Shown here piece by piece: positions 14,983 through 57,684 of a stretch of DNA of 64,000 nt. The stretch spans positions 5,267 to 69,266 of the forward strand of contig JAFLSW010000010.1 of assembly GCA_022510725.1 (NCBI GenBank). Reading direction: 5' to 3'. Under the pieces are notes generated by a model. It saw nothing but the letters and a program-made list of their open reading frames with translations, had not been told where the DNA came from and did no database searches. The stretch is from Lachnospiraceae bacterium (GTDB lineage Bacteria > Bacillota > Clostridia > Lachnospirales > Lachnospiraceae). A program made the position numbers and the translations under genes. Positions within the stretch are counted from its first letter, which is position 1, and each line of letters opens with the position of its first letter.

Positions 14983-15909
14983 TCATTGATCGCCATCTAA
15001 GTATTTTTGCAAGTCTTCTATTAAAAGTGCTGTTCTGACCTGAACTCCCTGATCGTTCAGATGCAGATAGGTATTATAAAACAATTCCTGATCCATCATA
15101 TAATCTTCATACCGGGAGATCAGAGGACAAGCAAGAAGGGAACCAAGCTTGTCAGAAAATGCCACATATTCCTCCCTATCCGGCGTATATTCACAAATAG
15201 GGGTAGGATAAGCAGCCACCAGCAATGTGGCCCCATTCTCTTTCAGCTTTTGGTCAAGAGCATTGATGCGGTTAATGGTCGCATCGCCGATTGCCGGTAT
15301 ATGCACCTGTGAAAAATCCGTGCCCGGTGCCAGCATCGGTCTGCCATAGATGTTGTCTCCATATTCATTGAACTGCTGCCTGCTGTATTCGTCTTCACTG
15401 CTCATATTTCCAATACCCTGAGTCCAGAGCTCCAGGCAATCTTTTAAATAAGTGGGATAGGCTCTGATCATACCCTTCCAGTCCTTGGGCCGGACATAGC
15501 TATATAATTCCAAATGGTTCTCTATGGTGATCCAGGCCAACTGCGGATTGCGGATCACATCCCCATCGTCAAAATTGCTGTAGCTTAAAATAACAATATC
15601 CCCTTCATGGACATTTTTCAACGCGGCCTGTTCTACAAAAGGATTACCCAGGTTGCCATGCATCCCCATGTTGACTACAGGCATCCCAAAGGCTTCTTCA
15701 ATAGCAGCAGAGTCGATTCCAAAAACCAGATTGGAATTGCCGATCAACACGATCTTAGGCTCGTCTATGGAACACAAGCGTTCATTTTTATCTATGAGCG
15801 CCGCCTGGTAATTATTCAGATATTGAGGCATAACGATCCAAAAACAAAATAGGATCACGATCCCCAGCATGATCAGACACTTTAAAAAAAATAGCAGTTT
15901 CTTTTTCAT
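14983..15909 (-). CDS. Membrane-anchored SGNH-like acyltransferase partner of the MBOAT protein (AlgJ/DltD-like)
   Basis: N-terminal TM helix, GNS motif and C-terminal YLH; directly downstream of the MBOAT gene. Confidence 0.55.
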   Translation of the reverse strand: MKKKLLFFLKCLIMLGIVILFCFWIVMPQYLNNYQAALIDKNERLCSIDEPKIVLIGNSNLVFGIDSAAIEEAFGMPVVNMGMHGNLGNPFVEQAALKNVHEGDIVILSYSNFDDGDVIRNPQLAWITIENHLELYSYVRPKDWKGMIRAYPTYLKDCLELWTQGIGNMSSEDEYSRQQFNEYGDNIYGRPMLAPGTDFSQVHIPAIGDATINRINALDQKLKENGATLLVAAYPTPICEYTPDREEYVAFSDKLGSLLACPLISRYEDYMMDQELFYNTYLHLNDQGVQVRTALLIEDLQKYLDGDQ

Positions 15910-15933
15910 GGATCTCTCCCTTTCTGACTAAGG

Positions 15934-17424
15934 TCAGAACTGAAAATAAATAAACTCTGTCTGGGTATAATCCAGCCCGTAAGCACCATATAACATGATC
16001 ACAAAAAGCAGTCCCAGATATACCAGCCAGCGAAACCAGATACCCTGGGTCAATACCAGGGAACGGACATCCTTTCCCCGATCCTTCAGACCGTCCACCA
16101 CAAACAGCAATATCACTGACAGAAGTAAAGCAATTTGCTGCTGCGCACTAAAGCCCATGCGCATGACTGCCAGACCAAAAAGCTGAGGGAACTGCAGGCT
16201 TTCTATGGTATGCCTGATCATGTCAAGGGCCTTGCCAAGGGTTTCCGCTCGGAAAAACAGCCAGGAAAAATCCACCAGCGCAAAAGTAAGCAATGTGCAG
16301 CCCAGTCGATAACTAAAACGGCTTTCATCTGCACGAAATACAGCTTTCACTTTGTTCCTAAAAGGTTCTGCTGCCTCTCCCACGATCAGATAAAGGCCAT
16401 TTAAGGCACCCCATATCATATAAGTCCATCCTGCTCCGTGCCACAGGCCGCTGATGAAAAATACAATAAATATATTGATAAACTTCCTGATACGCCCTTT
16501 CCGGTTGCCTCCCAAAGGAATATACAGATAATCCCGGAACCATCCGGTCAGGGAAATATGCCATCTTTTCCAGAACTCCTTGACACTTATTGCCTGATAA
16601 GGAGAACGGAAATTCTGCATCAGGTCAAATCCCAACACTCTGGCACTTCCCAGAGCCAGATAGGAATACCCTCCGAAATCACAGTAGATCTGGATAGCAA
16701 ACAAAACTGTTGCTAAAATCACTTCTACACCTGTATAGGCTGTATAATTCTCATACACCGCATTCACATATACTGCCGCATTATCCGCTATGACGATCTT
16801 CATAAACAGACCCCACAGCATGGTAAGGAGTCCTTCCCTTACCCGGTCCACATCAAAATCATTCTTTTTGTCAAACTGGGAGAGCAGATTGCTGCTTCGC
16901 TCAATGGGTCCTGCCACCAATTGCGGAAAGAAGGAGACAAACAGCATGTGTCGGAACAGATTCTTCGTAGCGGGCGTCTTGCCCCGGTACACATCCATGG
17001 TATAACCCAAAGCTTGAAAAATAAAGAAAGAGATGCCTACCGGTAACAGGATGTCCAGAATAGGGAACTGCTTTGTGCTGCCGGTAATACCCAAAAGGCG
17101 GTTTATATTCTGAATCAAAAAGTTAGCATATTTAAAATAGAATAAAAGAGAAAGATTCAAAAAAAAGTCAATACCCAAGATCCACTTAGCCGATCCGGTC
17201 TGTTCTTTTTTTATGGCTCTCTCTATCAGCAATCCCGCTGCATATGTAATAAAGGTGGATGCAAATAAAAGCAGCGCATAAGCTGCATTCCAACTCATAT
17301 AAAAATAATAGCTGGCAATCAAAAGCCAGAGATTGCGCAACTTTAGACACTTACCCGGTATGAGAAAATAAATTCCTGTTACAATGGGAAAAAATACCAG
17401 ATAATCCAGAGAATTAAACAGCAT
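15934..17424 (-). CDS. MBOAT family O-acyltransferase (AlgI/DltB-like)
   Basis: LPVGISFF, FFPQLVAGPI, FWKRWHISL and SGLWHGA motifs. Confidence 0.9.
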   Translation of the reverse strand: MLFNSLDYLVFFPIVTGIYFLIPGKCLKLRNLWLLIASYYFYMSWNAAYALLLFASTFITYAAGLLIERAIKKEQTGSAKWILGIDFFLNLSLLFYFKYANFLIQNINRLLGITGSTKQFPILDILLPVGISFFIFQALGYTMDVYRGKTPATKNLFRHMLFVSFFPQLVAGPIERSSNLLSQFDKKNDFDVDRVREGLLTMLWGLFMKIVIADNAAVYVNAVYENYTAYTGVEVILATVLFAIQIYCDFGGYSYLALGSARVLGFDLMQNFRSPYQAISVKEFWKRWHISLTGWFRDYLYIPLGGNRKGRIRKFINIFIVFFISGLWHGAGWTYMIWGALNGLYLIVGEAAEPFRNKVKAVFRADESRFSYRLGCTLLTFALVDFSWLFFRAETLGKALDMIRHTIESLQFPQLFGLAVMRMGFSAQQQIALLLSVILLFVVDGLKDRGKDVRSLVLTQGIWFRWLVYLGLLFVIMLYGAYGLDYTQTEFIYFQF

Positions 17425-45499: not shown

Positions 45500-45531
45500 A
45501 AAAGCTGCCGACTTGATGGTTGGCAGCTTTT
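45500..45531. terminator. Bidirectional terminator at the left edge of the AT-rich region
   Basis: AAAAGCTGCC ... GGCAGCTTTT. Confidence 0.75.
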
Positions 45532-45572
45532 TGATCCTCTAGCAATCCATATATTCCTTTATATACATTTTG

Positions 45573-46745
45573 CTATTTACCATCTATTATCTCTTTAATT
45601 GTTTGGGCATTATCAGTTAAATTCTTCATCTGTTTTAGTATTTTTTTATAAAAAGACTTAATATCATAGTCGGTTAAAATACTATATACTTGACGATTTT
45701 CAATAGCTATATTAATTAAGGTTTCTAAATCTTCATTTTTCCATCCACTACACTTTTTTAACTTATCTATTATTAAATGGGTATTCGCAAAACTTCTACT
45801 ATTTTCAAGAGAAATAATTAAATTCTTTTTCTCCTTTTCTTCATCATTATTTTGTTTATCTGCATCAACAAATTCTTTTTTATATTGATAGTGAATAGTT
45901 TCCAATTTTTCATTTGATGCAGTTCTATCAATTATTGATTTAACAAGCTTATCCAATTCTGTTCCTTCAGAATAATCAGCGGGTACAAAAAAACGGATTC
46001 TATTGTCACGCATCATTTTATAAACTTTACTTTTATCTTGATTATTATCATCATATACACCGATTGAATGACCGCCATATGTATTAACCAGTTTCATGCA
46101 AGGTATATCTGTATCACTGTCACCAATATAAATTATATTGCGAAAAGGTATTCTTATTTCTTCTGGCGGGAAATAATCATTTACTCCTTGATCATTAACA
46201 TCTAATACTCCTTTTTCTATTCTAAACAAAAATTGTGTTTTACTAGTATAATTAATTACCTGTGCTGGCCATATAGCTACTCCATGCTCATCATAATAGA
46301 ATGAACTAGCATATATTTTCTCAAATGCACCTGCTTTTGCAACAGAAGTTCCTTCAATCATTTCTTTTAATCCAGAGGAAATAATATAATGCTCAATAAT
46401 GACACCTTTACTTTTTCCATACTTTCTTACTCTTTCAAACCAGGTATCAACACCAGGATATAATTTGACCTCTGCACCATATTTATTCAGAGCTTCTTCA
46501 TTAAAAACAAAATTACCTTTTGCTTCTTCTATCATTTTATACATATAAGCCAAATTTTGATCCATATCATTCTCTTCTGCAAGCTGATTAGACTCCGTCC
46601 AAAAGTCAGCAACATCATATCCAACAGACTGAATATATCCTTGCGCTTGCATATCATCCGGTGATAGAGTTTTGTCAAAGTCATAACATATTGCTAGAAC
46701 TGGTTTATTTTCTTTTACTTTCCTCTCAAACTGTTTCTTACCCAT
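45573..46745 (-). CDS. HAD-superfamily hydrolase with a C-terminal helical extension
   Basis: DFDKT (motif I), ISSG (motif II) and GDSDTD (motif IV). Confidence 0.82.
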   Translation of the reverse strand: MGKKQFERKVKENKPVLAICYDFDKTLSPDDMQAQGYIQSVGYDVADFWTESNQLAEENDMDQNLAYMYKMIEEAKGNFVFNEEALNKYGAEVKLYPGVDTWFERVRKYGKSKGVIIEHYIISSGLKEMIEGTSVAKAGAFEKIYASSFYYDEHGVAIWPAQVINYTSKTQFLFRIEKGVLDVNDQGVNDYFPPEEIRIPFRNIIYIGDSDTDIPCMKLVNTYGGHSIGVYDDNNQDKSKVYKMMRDNRIRFFVPADYSEGTELDKLVKSIIDRTASNEKLETIHYQYKKEFVDADKQNNDEEKEKKNLIISLENSRSFANTHLIIDKLKKCSGWKNEDLETLINIAIENRQVYSILTDYDIKSFYKKILKQMKNLTDNAQTIKEIIDGK

Positions 46746-46783
46746 ATGAATCTCTCCTTTGAATTTTATATATAATGGTTTGG

Positions 46784-47755
46784 TTAATTTATATAGTCTA
46801 TTTTATAAATATTAGTGATATAAGTCTCTATATTATGCTTTGGTATTATTTTTTGATATTTTTTATCAATTTTAATACCGTCATCAGATTTATATAACTG
46901 GCATAATATATAAACATCTTCATTTTCATATACTATGGCATATATTGAGCATATCATAGCATTCTCTAATTCAAATACATTTTCATCTGTTAATTGACCT
47001 TCACTTTCTTCATATATAACTTTAAAGATGGATTTTTGGCTTTCTATAAACATCCCACACACATATGTGTAAATCGTTAAAAAAGAAACCATAAAAACAA
47101 CTAATAATAAAGAAAATAAAGGATTGGATTTTACTACTTTTTTCTCATCTTCTGATAAACCCTTTACAATATTCTTTTTATTAATTAGATGTGCATAACG
47201 AATTCCCGGAAGATTTATTATAAAAATATAAAATATAAGTAGTATTAATAAAACACACCAAGTTGTAGAAGTATAATTAGCAACTTCTCTAATTACATCC
47301 AAAATTCTATAGCTAGATTGTAAAAAAGATATAAATAATATAAATAATATTTCAAATATAAAAAATAGTGATTTTTTTAGATGTCGTTTTATATGAAATT
47401 TATTATTATCTTCCTGTGTTGCAATAATAAAATAAATAAGATTCATGAATAGCCAAAAAACCATTATTGCTATATACTCAATTATTTCAAGAAAGAAATT
47501 ATCATTTAGAGATATGTAAGACTTATTTATATTATATACAGAAAATTTTGCTGATTGAAATGTATACCCCAATGAACGAATTATCCAAATACAAATTGTT
47601 GTTATAGCTATAAGCATTGCACTAAATTTTTCAAAATGTTTTTTAGCATATATTCTTATTTTTCTGTAAAGTCTATATAGTATCTTTACATAATAATTCT
47701 TATATAAAGAAACAGACTTTTCATTAGATTTAGCAGTAAAATTGTTTTCTTTCAT
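46784..47755 (-). CDS. Hypothetical multi-pass membrane protein
   Basis: About five hydrophobic segments and a soluble C-terminus; ends 38 nt upstream of the HAD gene. Confidence 0.65.
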   Translation of the reverse strand: MKENNFTAKSNEKSVSLYKNYYVKILYRLYRKIRIYAKKHFEKFSAMLIAITTICIWIIRSLGYTFQSAKFSVYNINKSYISLNDNFFLEIIEYIAIMVFWLFMNLIYFIIATQEDNNKFHIKRHLKKSLFFIFEILFILFISFLQSSYRILDVIREVANYTSTTWCVLLILLIFYIFIINLPGIRYAHLINKKNIVKGLSEDEKKVVKSNPLFSLLLVVFMVSFLTIYTYVCGMFIESQKSIFKVIYEESEGQLTDENVFELENAMICSIYAIVYENEDVYILCQLYKSDDGIKIDKKYQKIIPKHNIETYITNIYKIDYIN

Positions 47756-47815
47756 TATTACACCTTTACTTCTTATTTAATTTTATAATTAAAGGATTAT
47801 TTTTTACAAATTAAT

Positions 47816-47923
47816 GCACCCAATCCACAGAGCCCTAGATTATAGAAACTTTTTATCTTTTGTGAATTGGGTGCGATAGATTTAATTTACAAATTTTCTC
47901 TTATATTGACAAATTATATCAAT
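47816..47923. repeat. Copy 1 of a ~108-bp repeated element (inverted repeat plus extended -10 promoter)
   Basis: Shares an identical 19-mer TTTTATCTTTTGTGAATTG and a 22/24 match CTTATATT(G/C)ACAAATTATA(T/C)CAAT with 53981-54086. Confidence 0.75.
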
Positions 47924-48036
47924 GTATGAGTAAAAAGTCCAGTAAATTAATATATAATTAATAAAAAATAGAGTCTTTAATTTGTAAGACTCTATCTCCA
48001 CCTTTTCATTTAAATTCTATACCAATCTTTAAATTT

Positions 48037-49005
48037 TTAACTCAATTCTTGCGCCTGATAGATCAACATGTCCCCAACCATAATCTCAGAAAGATCAGCT
48101 GGCACAATAACTGCCCCATTACGAATAAATACTACTATATCAATCTGATAATCATTTTCTACCGCCTTTACACACTGACCTTTAAAAGGGCTTGTCTCAT
48201 CTACAATCACACTTACAGTTCCTCTTACATTTCTTTTAGTTTCGTTATGATTTTGCATCTGCGTATAACGCTCTACGAAACCGGCAGAAATGATACCGGT
48301 TGGAATGGCCACTACGCCGACCCCCAAAAAAGATATGATAATTGCCATAAGTTGTCCAATTAGGGTAATCGGATAGATATCGCCATATCCCACAGTCAAA
48401 ATTGTAGACATACTCCACCAAATTCCCGAAAAGGCATTACTAAACACTTCCGGCTGCACATCATGTTCTACATTGTACATACACAAAGAGGATGCCATCA
48501 TTAAGACCATAATAATAAAAATAGAGGATATAAGTTGATTTCTTTTTTCACTCAAAACAGAAGTTATAACATTAATAGAATCATAGTATGCATTAATCCT
48601 AAACAAATGTAATATTCTAACTACACGCAACATCCTGAAAGCAATAAATCCTGATAAAAAGAAGAAAGGTAAAATCGTACACAGGTCTACAATCCCCTCA
48701 AAGGAAATCAGGAATCGCAGCATTGCCCTTCCTCTACTTTTATTAGGGTAAAGATATTCCGCCGTCCATATTCGTAACAAATATTCTATTAAAAATATTA
48801 TGACTGTAGCTAATTCTATTACACGCAGAATATTAGAATATTTTCCTACTTCATCAAATGTTTCTAAGAATAAAACTGCTATATTTGCAATAATAGCTCC
48901 TACAATGAGGAAATCAAAAATACGACTGGCAAGATCTTCCTTCTTGCCAATCTGGATGATGTCAAAAATGCGGTTTTTTCTTTTCTCATAAGTTAATGAA
49001 TTCAT
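48037..49005 (-). CDS. Potassium channel family ion transporter (6-TM)
   Basis: TVGYGD selectivity filter and an S4-like RMLRVVRILHLFR segment. Confidence 0.88.
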   Translation of the reverse strand: MNSLTYEKRKNRIFDIIQIGKKEDLASRIFDFLIVGAIIANIAVLFLETFDEVGKYSNILRVIELATVIIFLIEYLLRIWTAEYLYPNKSRGRAMLRFLISFEGIVDLCTILPFFFLSGFIAFRMLRVVRILHLFRINAYYDSINVITSVLSEKRNQLISSIFIIMVLMMASSLCMYNVEHDVQPEVFSNAFSGIWWSMSTILTVGYGDIYPITLIGQLMAIIISFLGVGVVAIPTGIISAGFVERYTQMQNHNETKRNVRGTVSVIVDETSPFKGQCVKAVENDYQIDIVVFIRNGAVIVPADLSEIMVGDMLIYQAQELS

Positions 49006-49719
49006 GAGTCTTCCCTTTTATCATTTATTCCTTTAGATTTTAAATTCAACAAATTATTATAAGTAGTATTCAGAAGCAATAATTAATATTTTATTTAAAC
49101 TCTGACAATTCATAATTTTATATCCAACCTGCGTATTGATTCCCCCTTCATCTTCCCAACTAATTTCTCCCATTTTTTATATTTATCAGATCGGTTTAAT
49201 TATATCCTTGATATCAACTTCTATATTGTAATCGTAATTGTTCATTATATCATATATAATTAATGTCAATTTTGGAAAATCATATAATTAGAATGTTTTA
49301 TATACTTCCTCATATGATATGTTTATAGAGTTTGAAATTTTATATAATTTATTAGACATCTTTTTAAGGATTTTGGATTCTTTATGTATAATATTTTGAA
49401 TTCACTCTGAAAATAAAGAAGAAATATTATCAATCCACTGTAAACTTTGTACTTGTAAAATTGACTTAAAAGTTCCATCAATTTATTTTGTACCATTGTT
49501 AAGAATTCATCAAATATTTCTAGCATATTGTTTTAGACAAAATTTGATTTATAAGTTCTGCAGTCCTCACAAAAGGATCATTTAAATTAGACATAGCAGT
49601 TTTTACTCCTTCAATGTATCCTACATCGTTACAACAACACAATTAATTCTTGCCTTCCAATTATTTGCCACCAAAATGTTATCCTCATAGCTCTCTAATT
49701 CTTCAATACATACCACATA

Positions 49720-50703
49720 TTATAAAACAACCGATGTTTCAAAGATTGCAGGATAATATCTATAAATCTTTTGGTAGGTCTCTATTTCCTCCTTTAACAA
49801 AAATTGAGCTTCTTTAATTGGATATGTTATATTAGGCATGTTGCGATTAAGTACTGTTAATTCCTTATATGTAAAATTAGGAACAGTAATATCATAGGGA
49901 GTATACGAATCATTATAGAATTCTAATTCTGAAAAATTACAATTAGCATATTTTTTAGCATCTTTATTTTTATATAATATCCATCCCATTGTTAGCATAA
50001 TTGCTTTTGAATCATTATATTTAAAATATACTAATTGCTGACATTGATATTTTTCATTTTCAGACAATATTGTCCGATTTCTTTCTAATATTTTATTCCT
50101 TACTACCATATCAAACATCTTATTAGTTGTTTGATATATTTTTTCTTTTGACATATCCTTAGGCTTGATACATTTAACAAGTGCTTCGTTATCTATTCTA
50201 GAGCAATACATTTTTAATTTTTCATTGGGAGATTTTTGCTGAAATTCATTTCCCAAATCCGAATTGAAGCTTATAAAAATGACACTTCCCGAGTCGACTT
50301 TTCCCACACAATTCTCAACATCTTGCAATTGCTCGCCAGTTATCCCACCATCATAATCTAACCAAATAATATTTTTTTTGTTATTCCACTTCAAACGAGA
50401 ACTATTTAATATATCAGATGCTTTACCAAACATCATGTTAATACAATTAAAGGGTTTATTAAATTCAAATCGTTCCTTATTCTTTTTATCTGAATTTATC
50501 TCCATACTGTACATCTCATTTATCCCAAATTCTTTATGGAACAAAGAAAAATCAACAAAATATTTAGCTCCCATTCCAATATATCTATAATTACATATTT
50601 GATCAAAGGCAACTAGTCTTGAAATCATTTCACACATCATTCGTCTTTCAATACTTTTACATGGCCGTATATTATAATTGACACTGACACTGCTTCCAGA
50701 CAT
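49720..50703 (-). CDS. Putative class I SAM-dependent methyltransferase-like protein
   Basis: YIGMG (motif I-like), SME acidic residue and IIWLDYDG (motif IV-like). The ATG overlaps the upstream stop (TGATG) behind GGAGG. Confidence 0.55.
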   Translation of the reverse strand: MSGSSVSVNYNIRPCKSIERRMMCEMISRLVAFDQICNYRYIGMGAKYFVDFSLFHKEFGINEMYSMEINSDKKNKERFEFNKPFNCINMMFGKASDILNSSRLKWNNKKNIIWLDYDGGITGEQLQDVENCVGKVDSGSVIFISFNSDLGNEFQQKSPNEKLKMYCSRIDNEALVKCIKPKDMSKEKIYQTTNKMFDMVVRNKILERNRTILSENEKYQCQQLVYFKYNDSKAIMLTMGWILYKNKDAKKYANCNFSELEFYNDSYTPYDITVPNFTYKELTVLNRNMPNITYPIKEAQFLLKEEIETYQKIYRYYPAIFETSVVL

Positions 50704-51995
50704 CAAATTTCCTCCATTTCACAATAATATTCAAAAAGCTTTTCTCCTACTACCTTATTAGTCTTTTCCCCCATATTGTCTTTAACTTTATCCACTTCTA
50801 CAGTTGGTTTTGAAAAAGTTATTTTGGTCATTGATATTTTCTGTTCTGGTTCTATAATATTAAAATCTACATTTTGATTGATCTTAGCAATTCTACTATA
50901 TGTTAGTTCTTCCTTTTTCGCTTTACATATAAAATCTAAGTCTTTTAAATCATTAACATCATATTTTCTTTTCAGTTCATCTATTAATTTAAAAATTTGC
51001 ACCATAGCCTCATGCATTTTCTGGGTTGCTATAATATATAATCTATTTGAGGTATCGACCCCTGTTTTAGTCGTATTCCATGGCAAAGCCAATAAATCTT
51101 TCGACTCAAAATAAACATATCCCCTAAACTCAGCTAAGCTATTGTGGTATATTCGAGTATTATTTCCCCATCCGGTTAAGCTGGTTTTATCTGCATATAA
51201 AACCAGTCTTCCATTACAATAAATGTACCACCCGGCTTTATTGGGTTCTCCCTTTTCAGTAATACCCGCTATAATAGTAATAGTTCCTTGGCTGTCTTTA
51301 ATTTTAAAATTATATGGCTGTATATTTTTGGATTCCAGTAACTTTTCTTTTCCATAATCAATTGTTATGCCATTAACTTCTATTCTTAGTCCATTCTCTG
51401 CTTCAACCGTCCTATACTTTTGTATATAATCAATTAATGAATTTATGAAGAGTTCGCTTTCGAATTTTGCTGTTATATCATCATTTAAATCTTCTACAAT
51501 TATCTTTGTTCCAGTTTCTGTATTCTTTAATCCGGTTTCTGCTTTCTCAAATTGAAAATTCCATTCATCATCTTTCAGCCATTTATTAACATCAACTTTC
51601 AACACAAAATGCTCTGTATTTGTTGTAGAAATTATCTCAAATTTATTCCCCAATTTAAAAAGCGTTCGCTTCATACCTATACCAAAAATACCTGTAAAAA
51701 AGGCTGCTGTTCCCTCCTTGCGACTAGAAGGCCTGCCAAATTTAAATGCATAAGTTCGAGCAGTCTCAATATCAATTCCTCCACAGTTATCTTCAATAAT
51801 AAATTTATCACTTGACATCTCAATCCTAATAAATAAATCATTATAATTTTTATTTGGCCGAGTTCTTTTAGCCCCATCAATTGAATTATCAATCAGTTCA
51901 ACAATTGCAGGTTTCACATCAATATCTCTTGTTAACATATAAATAAAAAAATCCTTTGTTGGGCTAGCATCAACCTTCTTATTTTGTGTTTCCAT
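50703..51995 (-). CDS. GHKL (MutL/MORC-like) ATPase
   Basis: ELIDNSID, DNCGGI, GIFGIGMK and GTKI Bergerat-fold motifs. Confidence 0.85.
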   Translation of the reverse strand: METQNKKVDASPTKDFFIYMLTRDIDVKPAIVELIDNSIDGAKRTRPNKNYNDLFIRIEMSSDKFIIEDNCGGIDIETARTYAFKFGRPSSRKEGTAAFFTGIFGIGMKRTLFKLGNKFEIISTTNTEHFVLKVDVNKWLKDDEWNFQFEKAETGLKNTETGTKIIVEDLNDDITAKFESELFINSLIDYIQKYRTVEAENGLRIEVNGITIDYGKEKLLESKNIQPYNFKIKDSQGTITIIAGITEKGEPNKAGWYIYCNGRLVLYADKTSLTGWGNNTRIYHNSLAEFRGYVYFESKDLLALPWNTTKTGVDTSNRLYIIATQKMHEAMVQIFKLIDELKRKYDVNDLKDLDFICKAKKEELTYSRIAKINQNVDFNIIEPEQKISMTKITFSKPTVEVDKVKDNMGEKTNKVVGEKLFEYYCEMEEI

Positions 51996-52992
51996 TTGTT
52001 ATCCCTTCTTTCGCTACTCTTTTTTGTTGTATATATCTACGATAGGCTCTAGTATATTCATAAGACTCTTTAAAAACATTATTTACTGCATTAAACAAAG
52101 CGGGTTCATATTCTTTCATAACATGTAATTCTTCTTCAAAGTTCCTTGCAAAGGGGCACCCAGCACAACCCGTTCTTTTTAATCCATATTCACTATAACA
52201 TCTACTATGATCCACATTATAATGCTCTTCATATATTTTTTTTGTTTCATTTAAATACCAAAATATTGGTCTATATTCATCGCCATCGTCATTAGTAGAA
52301 AAACAGGTTTTATAAGCTGATCGCCTTGCTCCACCTTCTGATTTTCTCACTCCATATATATTCAAATCAAATTTTTCTTGCTTTCTAAATTTTAATGCAA
52401 CCTTTTTTTTTGCATAATAGCAACACTTATTTGATATTTTAAAAGTGGGTGGATTTGTAATCATAAATTCTTTTAAATACTGATTATACGCTATATTAAA
52501 ACTACTTTCTTTTCCAGTTTCTGACTTCTGAAAGTCATTACACCACCACCGCAAAGCGGCTCTACATTGCGGATACCTTTGATATAATACATCAAACGAC
52601 TCCTCTTCCCACTGGAAATTATGTTTCTGTAACCTTTCAATCCATTCACTAACTTGCTTAGAAATAAATGGCTGTCCATATGTTTTACAACAATGAGGTA
52701 TTGATTTTTCTGCTCTAATGCGTTCAACATGTACTCCATACTTGTTCTCCAAATAGCTTATATGCTCTTTTGTTGCATTAAACTCAAGCCCTGTATCAAA
52801 AAATGCATATGTGATTTTATTAGATTCATCAAATTTTTCGCAAAGATCAATTAATATATCACTATCACTCCCACCACTGATTGAACATAGTATTTTATTA
52901 TACTGTTTTAGCTTTGCATGAGTAATTACAATGGAATCTGTAATTAATTGATTTTTTTCAGGTGCAACTTTTATTATTTCAAATAATTCCAT
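51979..52992 (-). CDS. PAPS-reductase family (PP-loop) protein with Fe-S cysteines
   Basis: SGGSDS PP-loop, KCC, GVRKSEG and RTGCAGCPF motifs. Confidence 0.85.
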   Translation of the reverse strand: MELFEIIKVAPEKNQLITDSIVITHAKLKQYNKILCSISGGSDSDILIDLCEKFDESNKITYAFFDTGLEFNATKEHISYLENKYGVHVERIRAEKSIPHCCKTYGQPFISKQVSEWIERLQKHNFQWEEESFDVLYQRYPQCRAALRWWCNDFQKSETGKESSFNIAYNQYLKEFMITNPPTFKISNKCCYYAKKKVALKFRKQEKFDLNIYGVRKSEGGARRSAYKTCFSTNDDGDEYRPIFWYLNETKKIYEEHYNVDHSRCYSEYGLKRTGCAGCPFARNFEEELHVMKEYEPALFNAVNNVFKESYEYTRAYRRYIQQKRVAKEGITNGNTK

Positions 52993-53201
52993 TATTTTTC
53001 CATATTCCTTTTTGTTATTTCAAATAATTTATTAACAAGATTCAATATCCTTAGATTAAGAATTGTCTTATACTCACCTTTTGCATATATCATCCACTTG
53101 ACCCAAATTCTTATTATGCTATGCCTATATAATTTACAATTTATACTCAAATTATTATATCTTTATAAGTTTTTCCAATCTGCTAGCATGATCCCATTCA
53201 T

Positions 53202-53230
53202 ATTATACTTAATGTATATTAAGTAAACAA
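53202..53230 (-). promoter_or_regulatory. Candidate promoter of the PAPS-GHKL-MTase operon with a palindrome in its spacer
   Basis: TTGTTT-17 nt-TATAAT, with TACTTAAT-GTAT-ATTAAGTA at 53206-53225. Confidence 0.45.
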
Positions 53231-53534
53231 GTTACTTTTGCTTTTTCTGACATTTGTTAATTATATTAATAAATACCAGAAAACTCTCGCAAAGATAATA
53301 GTGTTCCACTAACTAATTTCTTGTACTAATAGTATGAGTTTTTCAAAATTACAATAATTCATTTCAACACTTATTGTTGCTACAAAATTTTTTCTGTCAC
53401 CACTTTGTTACTAGCTACTAAATATATTTGTTATATAATTACTATTTAGAAATTGTTTATCTTTTAATCCTTTTAATTACGGTATTGCCATCTGGATATA
53501 TTCAATAAAAGCGGTCACAATACATAAATACTTA

Positions 53535-53963
53535 TTACAATAAATTAGACACACAAAAGAGGGATCTAACATGTCCTCTAATTATCATTCCACCCGGTAT
53601 AACAAAGAGCTCAAAAGAACCATCGTTTAACCTCTATTAAACCCCTCACCCACCGTAATATGTGGTACTCTGCTGTTAATGTTGGTGACGATGAAGTTCT
53701 TACCGCCAGACAAGTCAAGGAAAGCCAAAAACACAATGCCTGGTTTGAAGAAGATGATCTCATCCTAAAAAAGTGATTGCTATCTTCACACATATTTAAA
53801 CAACAATTAGCTACTATCCACAGGTTCAGATTCTGGCACATTGTCAAAACTTTATGCAGGATTTTAATCGTAAACAGAAGCACCTATTACAAATATTTTC
53901 ATTTACAGTCAGCTAAACATATTAGTGAAAATCATCGTATTGCCTCTTTGATCCTTCACTAAC
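53535..53963 (+). pseudogene. Degenerate IS3-family transposase remnant (orfA and start of orfB)
   Basis: OrfA-like VLTARQVKE...LILKK, an A6G -1 frameshift motif at 53767-53773, and OrfB-like KTLCRILIVNRSTYYK. Multiple internal stops. Confidence 0.75.
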
Positions 53964-53980
53964 AGATTTAACAATAAATA

Positions 53981-54086
53981 ACACCCAACCCACATACTTA
54001 TAGTCCTTAATCGCTTTTATCTTTTGTGAATTGAGTGTTTAATATTAAATTTATGTCTCTCCCTTATATTCACAAATTATACCAAT
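53981..54086. repeat. Copy 2 of the ~108-bp repeated element
   Basis: See copy 1; reads TGGTATAAT on the minus strand. Confidence 0.75.
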
Positions 54087-54108
54087 ATTCGACAAATAAG
54101 TCTAGCCC

Positions 54109-57100
54109 TTATTTCTCAATCAACCCATGTTTTATAAGCCTTGCCTTTATTGCTCCATAACTCCTTCCATGCGTCTTGGCAATTTGAGTAATTTTCATAC
54201 CGGAAGAAAACTCCTGTTTCAGTCTTTCATCTTCTTCTCGGCTCCACTTAGCACCTGCATTGGCCTTTTCTTGTACTTTTACCTCCTCAGGTGTTATCCC
54301 TAATAAATCAACCAGACTCTTCATATTCCTTGGTGTCATATGCTCCTTATAATGAAGGCCCTCGCTAGTAATATGTAACACCGGATATTTACCCTTTGTT
54401 CCAACGATATAATGCTTGCTGATCAGCCAATCTACCAGCTTATTAAGCGATTCACGATCCAAGTAGGAAAGCTTTCCATACTCCGGAAGCAGATTCAGTT
54501 TATCTTGTAATATTCTTTGGTCATATGAGCCGCGTAAAGTTCTGATTAAGATGGTAGCATTATAAAACTTTTTCGCACTGATACTCACCAGACATTGAAG
54601 AACTGTTTCAGCAATTTCAAATATACTATGACCTTTGTACATAGGATAACGAGATTCATCAACATCTATATTTTGAGTTGTCTCAATAATATTCTTCTCC
54701 CAGTTCTCGTGCTGAATCTGTTCGTTTACATCATTCCTATTTAACTCTTTATTCTTAGTCTGAACAGGTGCTTTCTGTTCTGTTTGAATAGTACTCTGCT
54801 GTTTGGGAATATGCGGTTTATATTCTTCTCGATCTATTTCATTCGGATCATATCCCATCATTTTGTAATACTCTCTCATGGAAAGTGTCTTATTGCATCC
54901 CTGATGATTTGCTTTATAATTACTACAGCCAAGAAAACACTCCCCTCCATTTTTAGGAGTCTTGACTATCAAATATCCATCCCGACAATCAGAACATTTC
55001 ATGATAGAAAGTTTTTTACCCCGCAGGTTGTTCGTCATAAAATCGCATACCTCGGGTTCATTGGTACAGATATACAATCTCAGGCCATATGCCGGTTTAT
55101 ACCTAAACTGCAGTGGAAAGCCGCAGATGGGGCATTTATGCTTACCCAGTATTACAGGTTCATCTTCCGACCACTGTCCACGCAAATAGACATTTTTATA
55201 TTCTTTTTTGATTTCCAGCAAAAATTCTGAAGGATTCTTTTCCGGCGCAACAAAATATACTCTATTCTTAGTCCTTGTCATTGCAACATAAAAAAGTCTT
55301 CTTTCTTCCGCGTATTGAATGCTCTTATCTTCCTTAACCACAAGAGATAAAACAGGATCATCTTCAATCTTGGAAGGAAATCCATATGTTTCATTCCGAC
55401 CATTTAACACGATAACATTATCATATCCTAATCCCTTTGATGCATGGGCTGTCATAAAGGTAAGATTTAAGTTAGGATATTTAACAGATTTAACCTTAGA
55501 ACCTCTGTTGACATATTCAAAAAGACCCGTGCGAGCTAGTCTATCACCATCAAAATTAAATCTGCCCAGCAAGAGAATTTTAGATTCTTCACTCTTCTTT
55601 CCCTCTTGCAAATTATAATTTATGATCTGATCAAGTGCAGTCTGAACAGCATATGCCAACGCATAATTTACACCGCTTCTTCTATTTGATTGAGAATATT
55701 GTACTGCATTATCATAAGTATAAATAATGACCGGCTCTTCAATATGCTTTGTGGAAATAAGTGACTTTCTGATTTGAGAAGTATTCTTCTGAATAAAGTT
55801 ACCGGCAATATCAATTACCTCTTGTGAATTTCGATAGGTTCTTACTATCTTCATAAGCTTTGCATATCCCATTTTCTCTTCAAACCGAGTAAACAAAGTA
55901 ATATCCGAACCACTAAATGCATAGATTGATTGCCAGTCATCTCCCACCGCCATGATCTTGGCATCGGTTACTTCAGAAAATGATTTTACCAGATCAAATC
56001 TTTGTCTGGAAATATCCTGGTACTCATCGACAATGAGGTATTTGAAGTCTAATTTTTGTTGCATTTCCTTTACTTCGTTTAAAACTCTTGCAGATTCATT
56101 AATCATATCTTCAAAGTCCACGGCACGATTTTCAACAAGAAATTTCTTATACTCCAAAAAACATGCATGGGCAATATCAAGAAATAGCTTTGTCCTGACA
56201 TTGCTCGTCTTAAGGGACAATTTATCAAAATCCCTTTCATCATATCCATTTACTTTAAAGTTTCTGATAAAGTTAATAACCAGAAATACCAAACGGTTAA
56301 TGTATTTATTTTCCTCTGAAGCCACCAATTTCTTTACAACCTCTTCATTAGACCGTTTCTTTAATTCAAAACCATGTTTTATAAGACTCTGCTCAAGATG
56401 TGCAGAAATACTGCCTCCATCTTTATATGCAGAATATGTATAGATCAATTCCGTATTATGCTGATGATGCAATTTAACCTTATCATTAATAGCCTTTTTA
56501 TATGCTTCCAGCTCTTCTTTATCATATAAAAAATTCTCTCCGGATTCCGTAATCCCAAAATGTTCAATATAAGCAACATGGTCACCTTGTTGGATTACAA
56601 AATCCGGTGTATATGGCTTTCTTGCCATTGAAATATTATATTTATAAATTGATTCATAAGTATAATCAATATTGTGCAAGTATAAAAAATTAGCAATTTC
56701 CACTTCCTGAATAGAGCGCACAATTTCGTTTTGAATAGTAACCTTTTTTCTGCTGTTTCTATCAATAACTTCTTCCCTAAAATCATCTAATTCACTACGC
56801 ATAGTGGCATAGTTAGCATTTGCCATATGGTTAAAGAAATGGTTAATGTCATCACCTTCGTATGGTGCATCAAAATAGGAAGCAAAGAAAAGTATTAAGC
56901 TATTGACTGTGCTGGAATCTTTTAGGATCTTCTCTCTAAAATAATTTTGCACACAGTAATAAAGCTTGCTGCCATCCACAATATTTAATTGCTCCGGATT
57001 GTTTTTGTGCAATATGGCATTTCCCGTAGAATGAAATGTTGCAATTGGACATGGAATATCAAGATCCTTATTAATGATGCTTCTAAGCTCATTCACCGCT

Positions 57101-57663
57101 TTATTGGTAAATGAAATAATAAGAATCTGACTGGGATCTATTCCCTGCTTTTCTACCAGATATTTTACTTTTGCTGCAACAGTAGTCGTCTTTCCGGCTC
57201 CTGCCCCGGCAACGACAAGGCTATAATCCTCATCGGAAAGAACCACTTTTCTCTGATCTTCATCAAGACTGATGACCGGATCCACTTCTTTTAAAATATA
57301 ATCCAGATATGCTTTTTCCTCAATAAGCTTTGAGTCCACATAGTTGTCATTGACTTTATCTACAATCTCATTAATCTGCTCATACTGATGATAGAGACTG
57401 CGGGCTCTATTCTGATCAAATCCATTTTTAAGGCAATAGTCTGAAAGAATATCATTTTCATCCATTGAAGCAAAAAACTTCATTGTCTCGTCATACTTCT
57501 CGATTTCAGCCGAAAATTCCTTACGAGAGATATAATGATCAGTATCAGCAATCTTATCAAGACACTGCTCCCACTCTAAAAGTTCCAGGCATTTGCCTGA
57601 AACCTTTTTCACTATATTTTCATCTGCTTGCTTTCTTTTCAATAAAGAATCCAGTAATCCCAT
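54109..57663 (-). CDS. UvrD/helicase-IV-like SF1 helicase with an inserted nuclease-like segment, zinc ribbons and an RQC-like C-terminus
   Basis: AGAGAGKTT, VDEYQD, HASKGLG and EERRLFYVAMTR motifs; EVEIANFL...YTPDF...YIEHFG; CPICG/CTNEP.C/CSDC/CSNY. Confidence 0.85.
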   Translation of the reverse strand: MGLLDSLLKRKQADENIVKKVSGKCLELLEWEQCLDKIADTDHYISRKEFSAEIEKYDETMKFFASMDENDILSDYCLKNGFDQNRARSLYHQYEQINEIVDKVNDNYVDSKLIEEKAYLDYILKEVDPVISLDEDQRKVVLSDEDYSLVVAGAGAGKTTTVAAKVKYLVEKQGIDPSQILIISFTNKAVNELRSIINKDLDIPCPIATFHSTGNAILHKNNPEQLNIVDGSKLYYCVQNYFREKILKDSSTVNSLILFFASYFDAPYEGDDINHFFNHMANANYATMRSELDDFREEVIDRNSRKKVTIQNEIVRSIQEVEIANFLYLHNIDYTYESIYKYNISMARKPYTPDFVIQQGDHVAYIEHFGITESGENFLYDKEELEAYKKAINDKVKLHHQHNTELIYTYSAYKDGGSISAHLEQSLIKHGFELKKRSNEEVVKKLVASEENKYINRLVFLVINFIRNFKVNGYDERDFDKLSLKTSNVRTKLFLDIAHACFLEYKKFLVENRAVDFEDMINESARVLNEVKEMQQKLDFKYLIVDEYQDISRQRFDLVKSFSEVTDAKIMAVGDDWQSIYAFSGSDITLFTRFEEKMGYAKLMKIVRTYRNSQEVIDIAGNFIQKNTSQIRKSLISTKHIEEPVIIYTYDNAVQYSQSNRRSGVNYALAYAVQTALDQIINYNLQEGKKSEESKILLLGRFNFDGDRLARTGLFEYVNRGSKVKSVKYPNLNLTFMTAHASKGLGYDNVIVLNGRNETYGFPSKIEDDPVLSLVVKEDKSIQYAEERRLFYVAMTRTKNRVYFVAPEKNPSEFLLEIKKEYKNVYLRGQWSEDEPVILGKHKCPICGFPLQFRYKPAYGLRLYICTNEPEVCDFMTNNLRGKKLSIMKCSDCRDGYLIVKTPKNGGECFLGCSNYKANHQGCNKTLSMREYYKMMGYDPNEIDREEYKPHIPKQQSTIQTEQKAPVQTKNKELNRNDVNEQIQHENWEKNIIETTQNIDVDESRYPMYKGHSIFEIAETVLQCLVSISAKKFYNATILIRTLRGSYDQRILQDKLNLLPEYGKLSYLDRESLNKLVDWLISKHYIVGTKGKYPVLHITSEGLHYKEHMTPRNMKSLVDLLGITPEEVKVQEKANAGAKWSREEDERLKQEFSSGMKITQIAKTHGRSYGAIKARLIKHGLIEK

Positions 57664-57684
57664 TTGACTTTCCTTAATGTAATT

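Follow-up and report, generated by a model that had tools for sequence, protein, structure and literature searches.

A PAPS-reductase-fold protein and a GHKL ATPase/PF20553 gene pair form a candidate modification-based defence cassette in a Lachnospiraceae bacterium

The window analysed in this study is a 64,000-nt stretch of Lachnospiraceae bacterium assembly GCA_022510725.1 (contig JAFLSW010000010.1, positions 5,267-69,266). On its minus strand lie three overlapping genes, which encode a protein with a 3′-phosphoadenosine-5′-phosphosulfate (PAPS) reductase fold (gene 1, hereafter PAPSw), a GHKL ATPase (gene 2, hereafter GHKL) and a protein with an S-adenosylmethionine (SAM) methyltransferase fold (gene 3, hereafter MT35). 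A first-pass annotation had proposed this triplet as a candidate new DNA-modification or defence system. The genes and their junctions are as follows.

51979-52992, minus strand: gene 1 (PAPSw), 337 aa, PAPS-reductase-fold PP-loop ATP pyrophosphatase with a CC...CxxC cysteine set
51979-51995, minus strand: overlap of genes 1 and 2, 17 nt (ATGGAAACACAAAATAA), read directly from the sequence
50703-51995, minus strand: gene 2 (GHKL), 430 aa, GHKL (Bergerat fold) plus S5-like transducer ATPase of the MORC/Hsp90 type
50701-50716, minus strand: translational-coupling junction of genes 2 and 3, GGAGG, 7 nt, then an ATG sharing its A with the TGA (TGATG)
49720-50703, minus strand: gene 3 (MT35), 327 aa, class-I SAM-methyltransferase fold, Pfam PF20553

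The overlap of genes 1 and 2 is bounded by the ATG of gene 2 at 51995 and the TAA of gene 1 ending at 51979, and the junction of genes 2 and 3 reads GGAGGAAATTTGATG; the first-pass annotation had described the same 17-nt overlap and TGATG, which can be read directly from the sequence. The mechanical list of open reading frames (ORFs) gives gene 3 as 49720-50706, 328 aa from a TTG, which sits one codon too far upstream. Since the ATG at 50703 overlaps the TGA of gene 2 by one base and is preceded by GGAGG 7 nt upstream, this ATG is the real start, and the database copy of gene 3 (protein P0001) is also 327 aa long. No intrinsic terminator was found on the coding strand between the three genes, and a search for public sequencing runs containing the stretch gave none. 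Since the open frames are long, the family matches are strong and the genes are conserved elsewhere, the triplet lies far beyond chance.

PAPSw carries the motifs SGGSDS (residues 39-44), KCC (189-191) and CAGC (276-279), and S37, S39, G41, D43, S44, C190, C191, C276 and C279 are invariant across 25 homologues. The match to PF01507 PAPS_reduct (E-value 2.8e-10) is confined to the N-terminal PP-loop region. The PADLOC matches to BrxP (6.8e-11) and SspD (1.9e-9) are also partial, both covering residues 29-118 only, and PADLOC gave no DndC match at an E-value of 0.01 or below. In hhalign, 86 columns of the DndC profile align, again in the PP-loop region only. Since only this region aligns, PAPSw is not considered an orthologue of DndC, SspD or BrxP. 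The best PDB sequence match is the [4Fe-4S] adenosine-5′-phosphosulfate (APS) reductase 2goy, whose CC and CxxC cysteines align with those of PAPSw. The conservation of the PP-loop and the cysteines, the 2goy match and the partial DndC alignment together indicate that PAPSw represents a distinct clade of Fe-S PAPS-reductase-fold ATP pyrophosphatases. Its NCBIfam scores are far under every curated cut-off (26-28 bits for the best cysH-type families, against cut-offs of 154-165), and it lies in a defence island, not in a sulfate assimilation context; it is thus not classed as CysH, the assimilatory APS/PAPS reductase. The other PAPS_reduct gene of the same genome belongs to an unrelated IbrA/IbrB-type pair (G000 contig C3 ~15239-17195; L103 8239-10195), in which a PAPS_reduct plus DUF3440 gene is followed by a ParB_N protein gene and which is flanked by chemotaxis and two-component genes.

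Gene 2 matches PF13589 HATPase_c_3 (E-value 8.5e-13). Its AlphaFold2 model (pLDDT 88.7) has a helical/small alpha-beta C-terminal extension of ~110 aa, and a Foldseek search of the PDB with this model returned the N-terminal plus middle domains of TRAP1/Hsp90 and the ATPase modules of MORC2/MORC3 (E-values ~1e-16), superposed with a TMq of 0.50-0.57 over ~400 columns. N37, D40, D69-N-C-G-G73, G105, G107 and K310 are invariant in 43 homologues. These include the N, G1 and G2 ATP-binding boxes and the transducer Lys; by fold and motifs, gene 2 contains a GHKL plus S5 module of the general MORC/paraMORC kind. The same Foldseek search matched no nuclease domain; the earlier description of gene 2 as a MORC-type GHKL ATPase without a nuclease thus agrees with both the family match and the fold comparison. 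The protein also matches phrog_20521 (E-value 2e-76), labelled in PHROGs as of unknown function.

MT35 matches PF20553 (Methyltransf_35) over residues 5-324 with an E-value of 2.3e-88 (296.9 bits against a cut-off of 27), and its AlphaFold2 model (pLDDT 88.8) has the seven-strand class-I methyltransferase topology. Foldseek returned generic class-I methyltransferases only (CysG/BelI, Trm1, Coq5 and O-methyltransferases; E-values of at least 3.5e-7, TMq 0.29-0.38) and recognised no nuclease fold, and a profile search of PDB sequences gave no match. The SAM-methyltransferase-like character that had been assigned to gene 3 is therefore borne out. Invariant residues are G44, G46, E69, N83, D117-Y-D119, Y230 and D232, which include the SAM-binding positions GxG, E69 and D117-Y-D119, following strands 1, 2 and 4, respectively. 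The N-terminus carries VNYNIRPCKSIERRM, a motif that the first reading of the window had already picked out together with the three motifs of PAPSw; a basic N-terminal helix, NYxxRPxKSIERKM, is nearly invariant, and the least conserved stretch in the conservation profile is an insert at residues ~141-220. As judged from the sequences, all three proteins retain their catalytic-type motifs.

The PF20553 family is large, with 2,298 clusters at 50 % identity in an exhaustive profile search (E-value of 0.001 or below); the best 150 of these clusters are nearly all stand-alone proteins of ~310-345 aa. One allele occurs in 1,641 data blocks of the collection, and the contigs examined were gut and other metagenome assemblies. 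MT35 also matches phrog_19983 (E-value 6e-36), another PHROGs family of unknown function. The defence database PADLOC v2 (PADLOC-DB v2.0.0) has no model for genes 2 and 3, with no family at an E-value of 0.01 or below, and NCBIfam gave a weak MzaB match alone (E-value 5e-5, 21.8 bits against a cut-off of 850). No description of PF20553 or of the GHKL plus PF20553 pair was found in the searchable full-text literature. Three apparent Rosetta-stone fusions, P0110 (PAPS_reduct plus PF20553), P0112 (GHKL plus PF20553) and P0116, were rejected as deletion chimeras and are thus not evidence of interaction; in P0110 and P0112 the junction falls at one shared DQNINYQ point, in MT35 genes that are almost identical.

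Scanning one genome per GTDB species yielded 182 PF20553 loci, of which the best 80 were kept, and the ORFs within ~5 kb of the pair were clustered and annotated with Pfam. In all 80 loci, which come from many phyla, a GHKL gene lies directly upstream of the PF20553 gene, co-directional and usually overlapping it; the window has the same arrangement, with a full-length PF20553 match and the HATPase_c_3 gene immediately upstream on the same strand. The neighbours are dnd genes (DndC, DndD, DndE, DndB, DndA) in 39 loci and a C5 cytosine methylase in 31, with Vsr in 22 loci of the set; a PAPS-reductase gene lies directly upstream of the pair, as in the window, in five. The remaining five have no modification gene within ~5 kb, three of them carrying a DndA-like gene alone and some reaching contig ends. 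One, L004, was rejected as a locus without a modification gene, since its genome has dndCDEA in the same orientation ~14 kb upstream, and a DpdE/F/G/H-like block separates dndCDEA from the pair; a UvrD-like gene is also present there between dndA and the Dpd-like block. Counting L004, 40 loci are of the dnd type, and 76 of the 80 carry a DNA-modification module. An FtsK-family gene is found in 23 loci of the set and beside the pair in 22 of the 39 dnd loci. It was considered as a restriction part and rejected; since a DndE-HerA/FtsK fusion has been described in dnd systems (PMC10853773), it is taken as this fusion in the dnd writer module.

The pair is also found within a class-1 DISARM operon on the Microvirga terrae plasmid pR24_2 (L112, 4582-6996), between an MmeI-like methylase and drmA, and at the accessory end of the Pseudomonas filamentous phage PfAC20 (L111, 280-3711) together with a C5 cytosine methylase; a second Dcm lies further along this phage. 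The conserved unit is thus the GHKL plus PF20553 pair, whose partners also include dnd, Dcm and DISARM.

The whole triplet recurs in the GTDB species genomes L002, L003, L039 and L076, in L065 with a PAPS-reductase of a different subfamily, and in very many human-gut contigs. The L065 PAPS-reductase is 27 % identical to PAPSw and occupies the same position. Between the window and L039, identity is 76 % for PAPSw, 45 % for GHKL and 41 % for MT35. In a tree of concatenated GHKL and MT35 sequences, which included six PAPS-reductase-type rows, the Dcm-type loci form nearly one clade, whereas the PAPS-reductase type is nested inside the Firmicutes dnd-type clade and requires at least three changes. 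L076 (PAPS) is sister to L081 (dnd) with a branch length of 0.12, and the sister group of the clade of the window, L002 and L003 is L005/L004 (dnd). This topology indicates that a PAPS-reductase gene replaced dnd at least three times in the tree of the pair.

PAPSw is far commoner than the pair, with 4,654 matches. One close orthologue (P0127, 75 % identity) belongs to a triplet in a common gut Lachnospiraceae bacterium that lies beside a Dcm/EcoO109I system. In other contexts, a close PAPSw orthologue lies upstream of PbeA and a DndD/PbeC-like AAA_23 ATPase (P0233, 60 %); follows PbeA, a small ORF, PbeC and a 177-aa ORF and overlaps a cysteine desulfurase gene (P0212, 65 %; L105 281-7137); follows DpdF/G/H-like genes and a 218-aa ORF and precedes an HNH protein (P0204, 64 %; L107 1-7230); or overlaps a 658-aa DUF262/GmrSD_N gene (P0179, 67 %; L104 3028-5984). 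L104, L105 and L107 represent three further compact candidate systems built on PAPSw. At least 419 IMG/VR viral contigs carry full-length PAPSw orthologues with 52-61 % identity, and the GHKL plus PF20553 pair is absent from all 80 viral PAPSw loci kept from these contigs. An orthologue with 51 % identity lies in the replication module of a Clostridium phage, and distant homologues (36-41 %) are found in mobile elements near recombinases, helicases and a Dcm. Many of the viral loci (L120-L199) are on gut phage contigs of 150-165 kb, and in 48 of the 80 an ORF of ~120 aa lies ~170 nt upstream of PAPSw; nhmmer found no counterpart of the phage upstream regions before the window gene or nine other cellular copies.

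These distributions indicate that the triplet is a junction of two independently mobile modules and not one indivisible invention. Of the first-pass idea of a single new system, the recurrence of the operon therefore stands, and the indivisible triplet gives way to the pair as the conserved unit and a separately mobile PAPSw. In natural variants of a Gallintestinimicrobium-type triplet from gut metagenomes (L082/L209 and L084), the GHKL gene is frameshifted (73 + 338 aa) or the PF20553 gene is truncated (190 aa), and the PAPS-reductase gene stays intact; the right flank of this cassette type is variable, with integrases and IS21 or Mu-like transposases.

Since the pair elsewhere lies almost always beside DNA-modification genes, the operon most likely represents an undescribed compact cassette of the restriction-modification type. 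We consider that it may combine a modification module and its partner, two interchangeable modules, into one defence cassette, and we put the probability of this reading at roughly one half. PAPSw stands in the place of dndBCDE, DndCDEA or DpdABC, lies beside Pbe, Dpd-like or DUF262 (SspE-like) modules, for which dependence on a DNA mark is known or predicted, once adjoins a desulfurase gene and occurs alone in phages, which is the pattern expected of a self-sufficient, sulfur-using DNA-marking enzyme; PAPSw is probably a DNA-marking enzyme, and its mark is probably sulfur-based. The pair, on the other hand, lies beside writers of unrelated chemistry and is the sole non-writer in minimal loci, which is the pattern expected of a mark-dependent partner. 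From these two patterns the window operon is read as a writer plus its partner. DNA as the substrate, sulfur as the mark, the assignment of restriction to one module and protection against phages are points that we only infer from sequence.

In the mechanism that we propose, gene 1 (module M) would use ATP to adenylate a DNA site and then substitute sulfur from a host cysteine desulfurase, so that the own DNA would be marked with a phosphorothioate (PT) or another sulfur mark, as by DndC, SspD, BrxP and TdpC. The first-pass annotation had suggested that a host desulfurase could be borrowed. At least four genes for class-V aminotransferases (cysteine-desulfurase type) in the genome could provide the sulfur, and host IscS commonly substitutes for DndA (PMC12914056). 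In module R, a MORC/Hsp90-like ATPase dimer would act as an ATP-driven clamp on DNA carrying the SAM-binding methyltransferase-fold subunit, and the variable insert of MT35 may give site preference. The pair would then act on unmarked DNA by blocking or silencing it, by modifying it chemically or by recruiting nucleases where these are present.

Several observations weigh against this reading. Neither partner protein has a recognisable nuclease, and the loci in DISARM, L004 and L081 contain other restriction modules besides the pair, which may be accessory rather than an effector. The MT35 and GHKL alignments have no column with one fixed residue in dnd/PAPS-type pairs and another in Dcm-type pairs, so that a fixed mark-reading pocket is not evident. 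The characterised Dnd, Ssp and BREX-4 writers all need a P-loop ATPase partner, which is missing here, and the similarity of PAPSw to DndC ends with the PP-loop. A Bacteroides isolate with a PAPS reductase, of this or another family, beside an ATPase and without dndD is reported to have no detectable PT dinucleotides (PMC12914056). Among gut contigs with identical MT35, PAPSw is intact in all and GHKL is broken in one; even with the contigs that have an identical PAPSw allele, such events are too few to show the asymmetric decay typical of restriction (R) genes. Since a nuclease and distinguishing residues are absent and restriction machinery co-occurs, the pair could be a nuclease-free effector with a parallel in BREX, a second ATP-guided writer or an accessory. 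A bolder version of the writer-plus-partner cassette, which we regard as doubtful, is that gene 1 and its phage relatives are single-protein writers of a sulfur mark (PT without a DndD/SspC-type partner, or a thiolated base) and that the pair restricts without a nuclease. A MORC-like clamp would load the methyltransferase-fold subunit on unmarked DNA and inactivate that DNA by compaction/silencing or damaging methylation, and any self-mark (PT, 5-methylcytosine (5mC), N6-methyladenine (m6A) or a new mark) would block access.

The lack of a nuclease in GHKL or MT35 also fits a cassette that only modifies, for anti-restriction or epigenetic purposes. MT35 would then be an active nucleic-acid methyltransferase loaded by the GHKL clamp, and sulfur and methyl marks would be stacked on a mobile element with no restriction activity of the operon itself. 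The SAM-binding-type motifs of MT35 are invariant, a D-Y-D-G motif follows strand 4, the base N-methyltransferase Trm1 is among the best fold matches, and the variable insert resembles a target-recognition region. In L004 and DISARM the pair adjoins full restriction modules, where a methylase would sit; DpdF/G/H-like genes come before the pair in L004 and before PAPSw in L107, and the pair is found in phage PfAC20 and on plasmids. However, two orphan writers are unlikely to stay beside a third, unrelated writer (dnd, Dcm or PAPS) in 76 of 80 loci across phyla. The pair is also missing from every one of the 80 viral PAPSw loci examined, and a single record among the 50,697 of the phage collection has it. 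We consider a purely modifying cassette unlikely. The partnership with chemically unrelated marks (PT, 5mC, the m6A-type methylase of DISARM, PAPSw) without group-specific residues, and the co-occurrence with complete systems (DISARM, dnd plus Dpd-like modules), could instead mean that the pair monitors or supports modification immunity without reading the mark. In that case it could, for example, sense interference with modification or SAM supply, or remodel DNA, and would trigger growth arrest or aid effectors. The minimal loci, Dcm plus pair or PAPSw plus pair, have no other effector, no toxin-type domain is present, and the idea is speculative with no precedent for this fold combination; we think such a role quite improbable.

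The three genes could also be chance neighbours in a defence island, with gene 1 acting elsewhere in nucleotide, tRNA or sulfur metabolism and unrelated to the pair. Phage homologues carry the metabolic label 'PAPS reductase' in PHROGs and GenBank, many of the settings in which PAPSw occurs lack the pair, and defence islands juxtapose unrelated genes, here with PDC-S34 and a helicase nearby. Against this stand the 17-nt coding overlap and the operon structure, the same arrangement in at least five species-level genomes and very many gut contigs, and at least three independent junctions involving two PAPS-reductase subfamilies. Furthermore, all other PAPSw contexts examined in cellular genomes are DNA-mark-dependent restriction modules, the own genome has no housekeeping copy, and relatives lack the gene. 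Chance neighbourhood thus seems very unlikely.

Among phosphorothioate defence systems, the cassette would work most like the three-gene Tdp system, as far as the two can be compared by description only. Tdp (An et al., Nat Chem Biol 2025) is cited in PMC12914056 as a system in which tdpC alone suffices for phosphorothioation. By this summary account, Tdp has a hypercompact three-gene layout, as has the cassette; tdpC writes the sulfur mark via an adenylated intermediate, without a DndD/SspC-type ATPase, as is proposed for gene 1, and the other two genes form the restriction part. Tdp is described from extreme thermophiles, whereas the cassette comes from a Clostridia-type genome with relatives in human-gut and other metagenomes. 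TdpA and TdpB are known as a hexameric translocase and a nuclease, whereas genes 2 and 3 encode a GHKL ATPase and a methyltransferase-fold protein. No Tdp-named chain was among the matches listed for the PAPSw profile against PDB sequences or among the top 50 Foldseek matches of the GHKL and MT35 models.

With Dnd, Ssp and BREX-4 the cassette would share a sulfur-inserting writer of the PAPS-reductase-fold PP-loop/Fe-S type, a cysteine desulfurase, possibly the host's, as the sulfur source, and the combination of writer modules with interchangeable restriction modules (DndFGH, PbeABCD, SspE/SspFGH). PAPSw orthologues adjoin PbeA/PbeC and DndA-like genes, and the pair adjoins dnd in 40 of the 80 loci. 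However, the window has no DndD/SspC/BrxC ATPase, DndE, SspB (DUF4007), DndFGH, Pbe or SspE, and the partner module is a GHKL ATPase plus a methyltransferase fold. No DndD ABC ATPase or DndE was found among the ORFs at 44-58 kb of the window, and PADLOC found no SspB/C/E or BrxC/Z/L among the neighbours; a DndE (PF08870) search of the own genome gave no match, but control genomes likewise gave none. The PADLOC scan and the hhalign comparison of PAPSw with DndC thus uphold the earlier view that the locus is neither a Dnd nor an Ssp set, and it is not a BREX-4 set either.

Prokaryotic MORC/paraMORC GHKL plus S5 ATPases are embedded in operons with DNA cytosine methylases and Vsr, and Iyer, Abhiman & Aravind (2008; PMC2292703) predicted a role for such ATPases in manipulating the DNA that lies between the sites of recognition and action. 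This description fits the 31 loci in which the pair is of the Dcm/Vsr type. The described systems include SF2 helicases and restriction-fold, HNH or TIR nucleases (PMC2292703), whereas the constant partner here is the PF20553 protein, with no SF2 helicase or recognisable endonuclease in the operon. The nearby UvrD-like gene of the window is SF1, is separated from the operon by an insertion sequence (IS) remnant and is not conserved at other triplet loci. That paper (PMC2292703) does not mention PF20553 or links to dnd or PAPS-reductase, and a 2024 reappraisal of Dnd (PMC10853773) does not mention GHKL, MORC, MutL or PAPS. The cassette would resemble BREX and DISARM, whose complexes require both an ATPase and a subunit with the SAM-methyltransferase fold in order to exclude DNA that is not marked. 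In BREX a recognisable nuclease is not obligatory. The self-mark of BREX is set by its own methyltransferase, whereas here a distinct writer always accompanies the pair, and PADLOC found no homology to PglX, PglZ, BrxC, BrxL or DrmA/B/C in the window.

The cassette is thus regarded as a probable modification-based defence system with new components, and the chance that it represents a new restriction principle and a new type of DNA writer is not negligible. PF20553 is a large family, yet neither the searchable literature nor PADLOC v2 has an entry on it. Should the pair prove to be a restriction partner, this would account for many 'solitary' dnd and Dcm loci without DndFGH or a cognate nuclease, a long-standing puzzle (PMC10853773), and would provide a prokaryotic model for MORC ATPases that act with DNA-modification marks. 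If gene 1 is a one-protein sulfur writer of DNA, hundreds of phage 'PAPS reductase' auxiliary metabolic genes would be re-read as anti-restriction DNA modifiers, and the enzyme would be a very compact tool for site-specific thiolation of the DNA backbone or bases.

The cassette lies in a ~12-kb island whose G+C content is 0.22-0.37 in the composition profile, compared with ~0.45 in the flanks. PF20553 is present in only one of 61 related genomes, the window's own, and among 399 genomes of the same class PAPSw homologues were found in just three others (36-41 % identity), with five further weak matches. The low-GC island and the scarcity in relatives indicate that the cassette was acquired horizontally. 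The closest relative shares only a MerR gene with the region; since synteny is not kept, no empty site is demonstrable. Family scans place PDC-S34, a multi-transmembrane (multi-TM) protein, a K+ channel, an IS remnant and a UvrD/helicase IV-like gene in the island besides the cassette. The island, which is context and not part of the cassette, and these neighbours are as follows.

45500-57670, no strand: low-GC island carrying the cassette
45573-46745, minus strand: HAD-fold protein with a near-full-length match to the PADLOC single-gene candidate PDC-S34 (E-value 7e-200)
46784-47755, same strand as PDC-S34: 323-aa multi-TM protein of no family
48037-49005, same strand as PDC-S34: voltage-gated-type K+ channel
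~53611-53962, both strands: short overlapping ORFs resembling an IS3-type transposase remnant (STYYKY helix-turn-helix motif)
54109-57663, minus strand: 1184-aa UvrD/helicase IV-like SF1 helicase with zinc ribbons, an RQC domain and a C-terminal helix-turn-helix

The helicase has GajB-like PADLOC matches and is not conserved beside the triplet in other genomes. The IS3-type remnant fills part of the 1.1-kb gap between this helicase and the operon.

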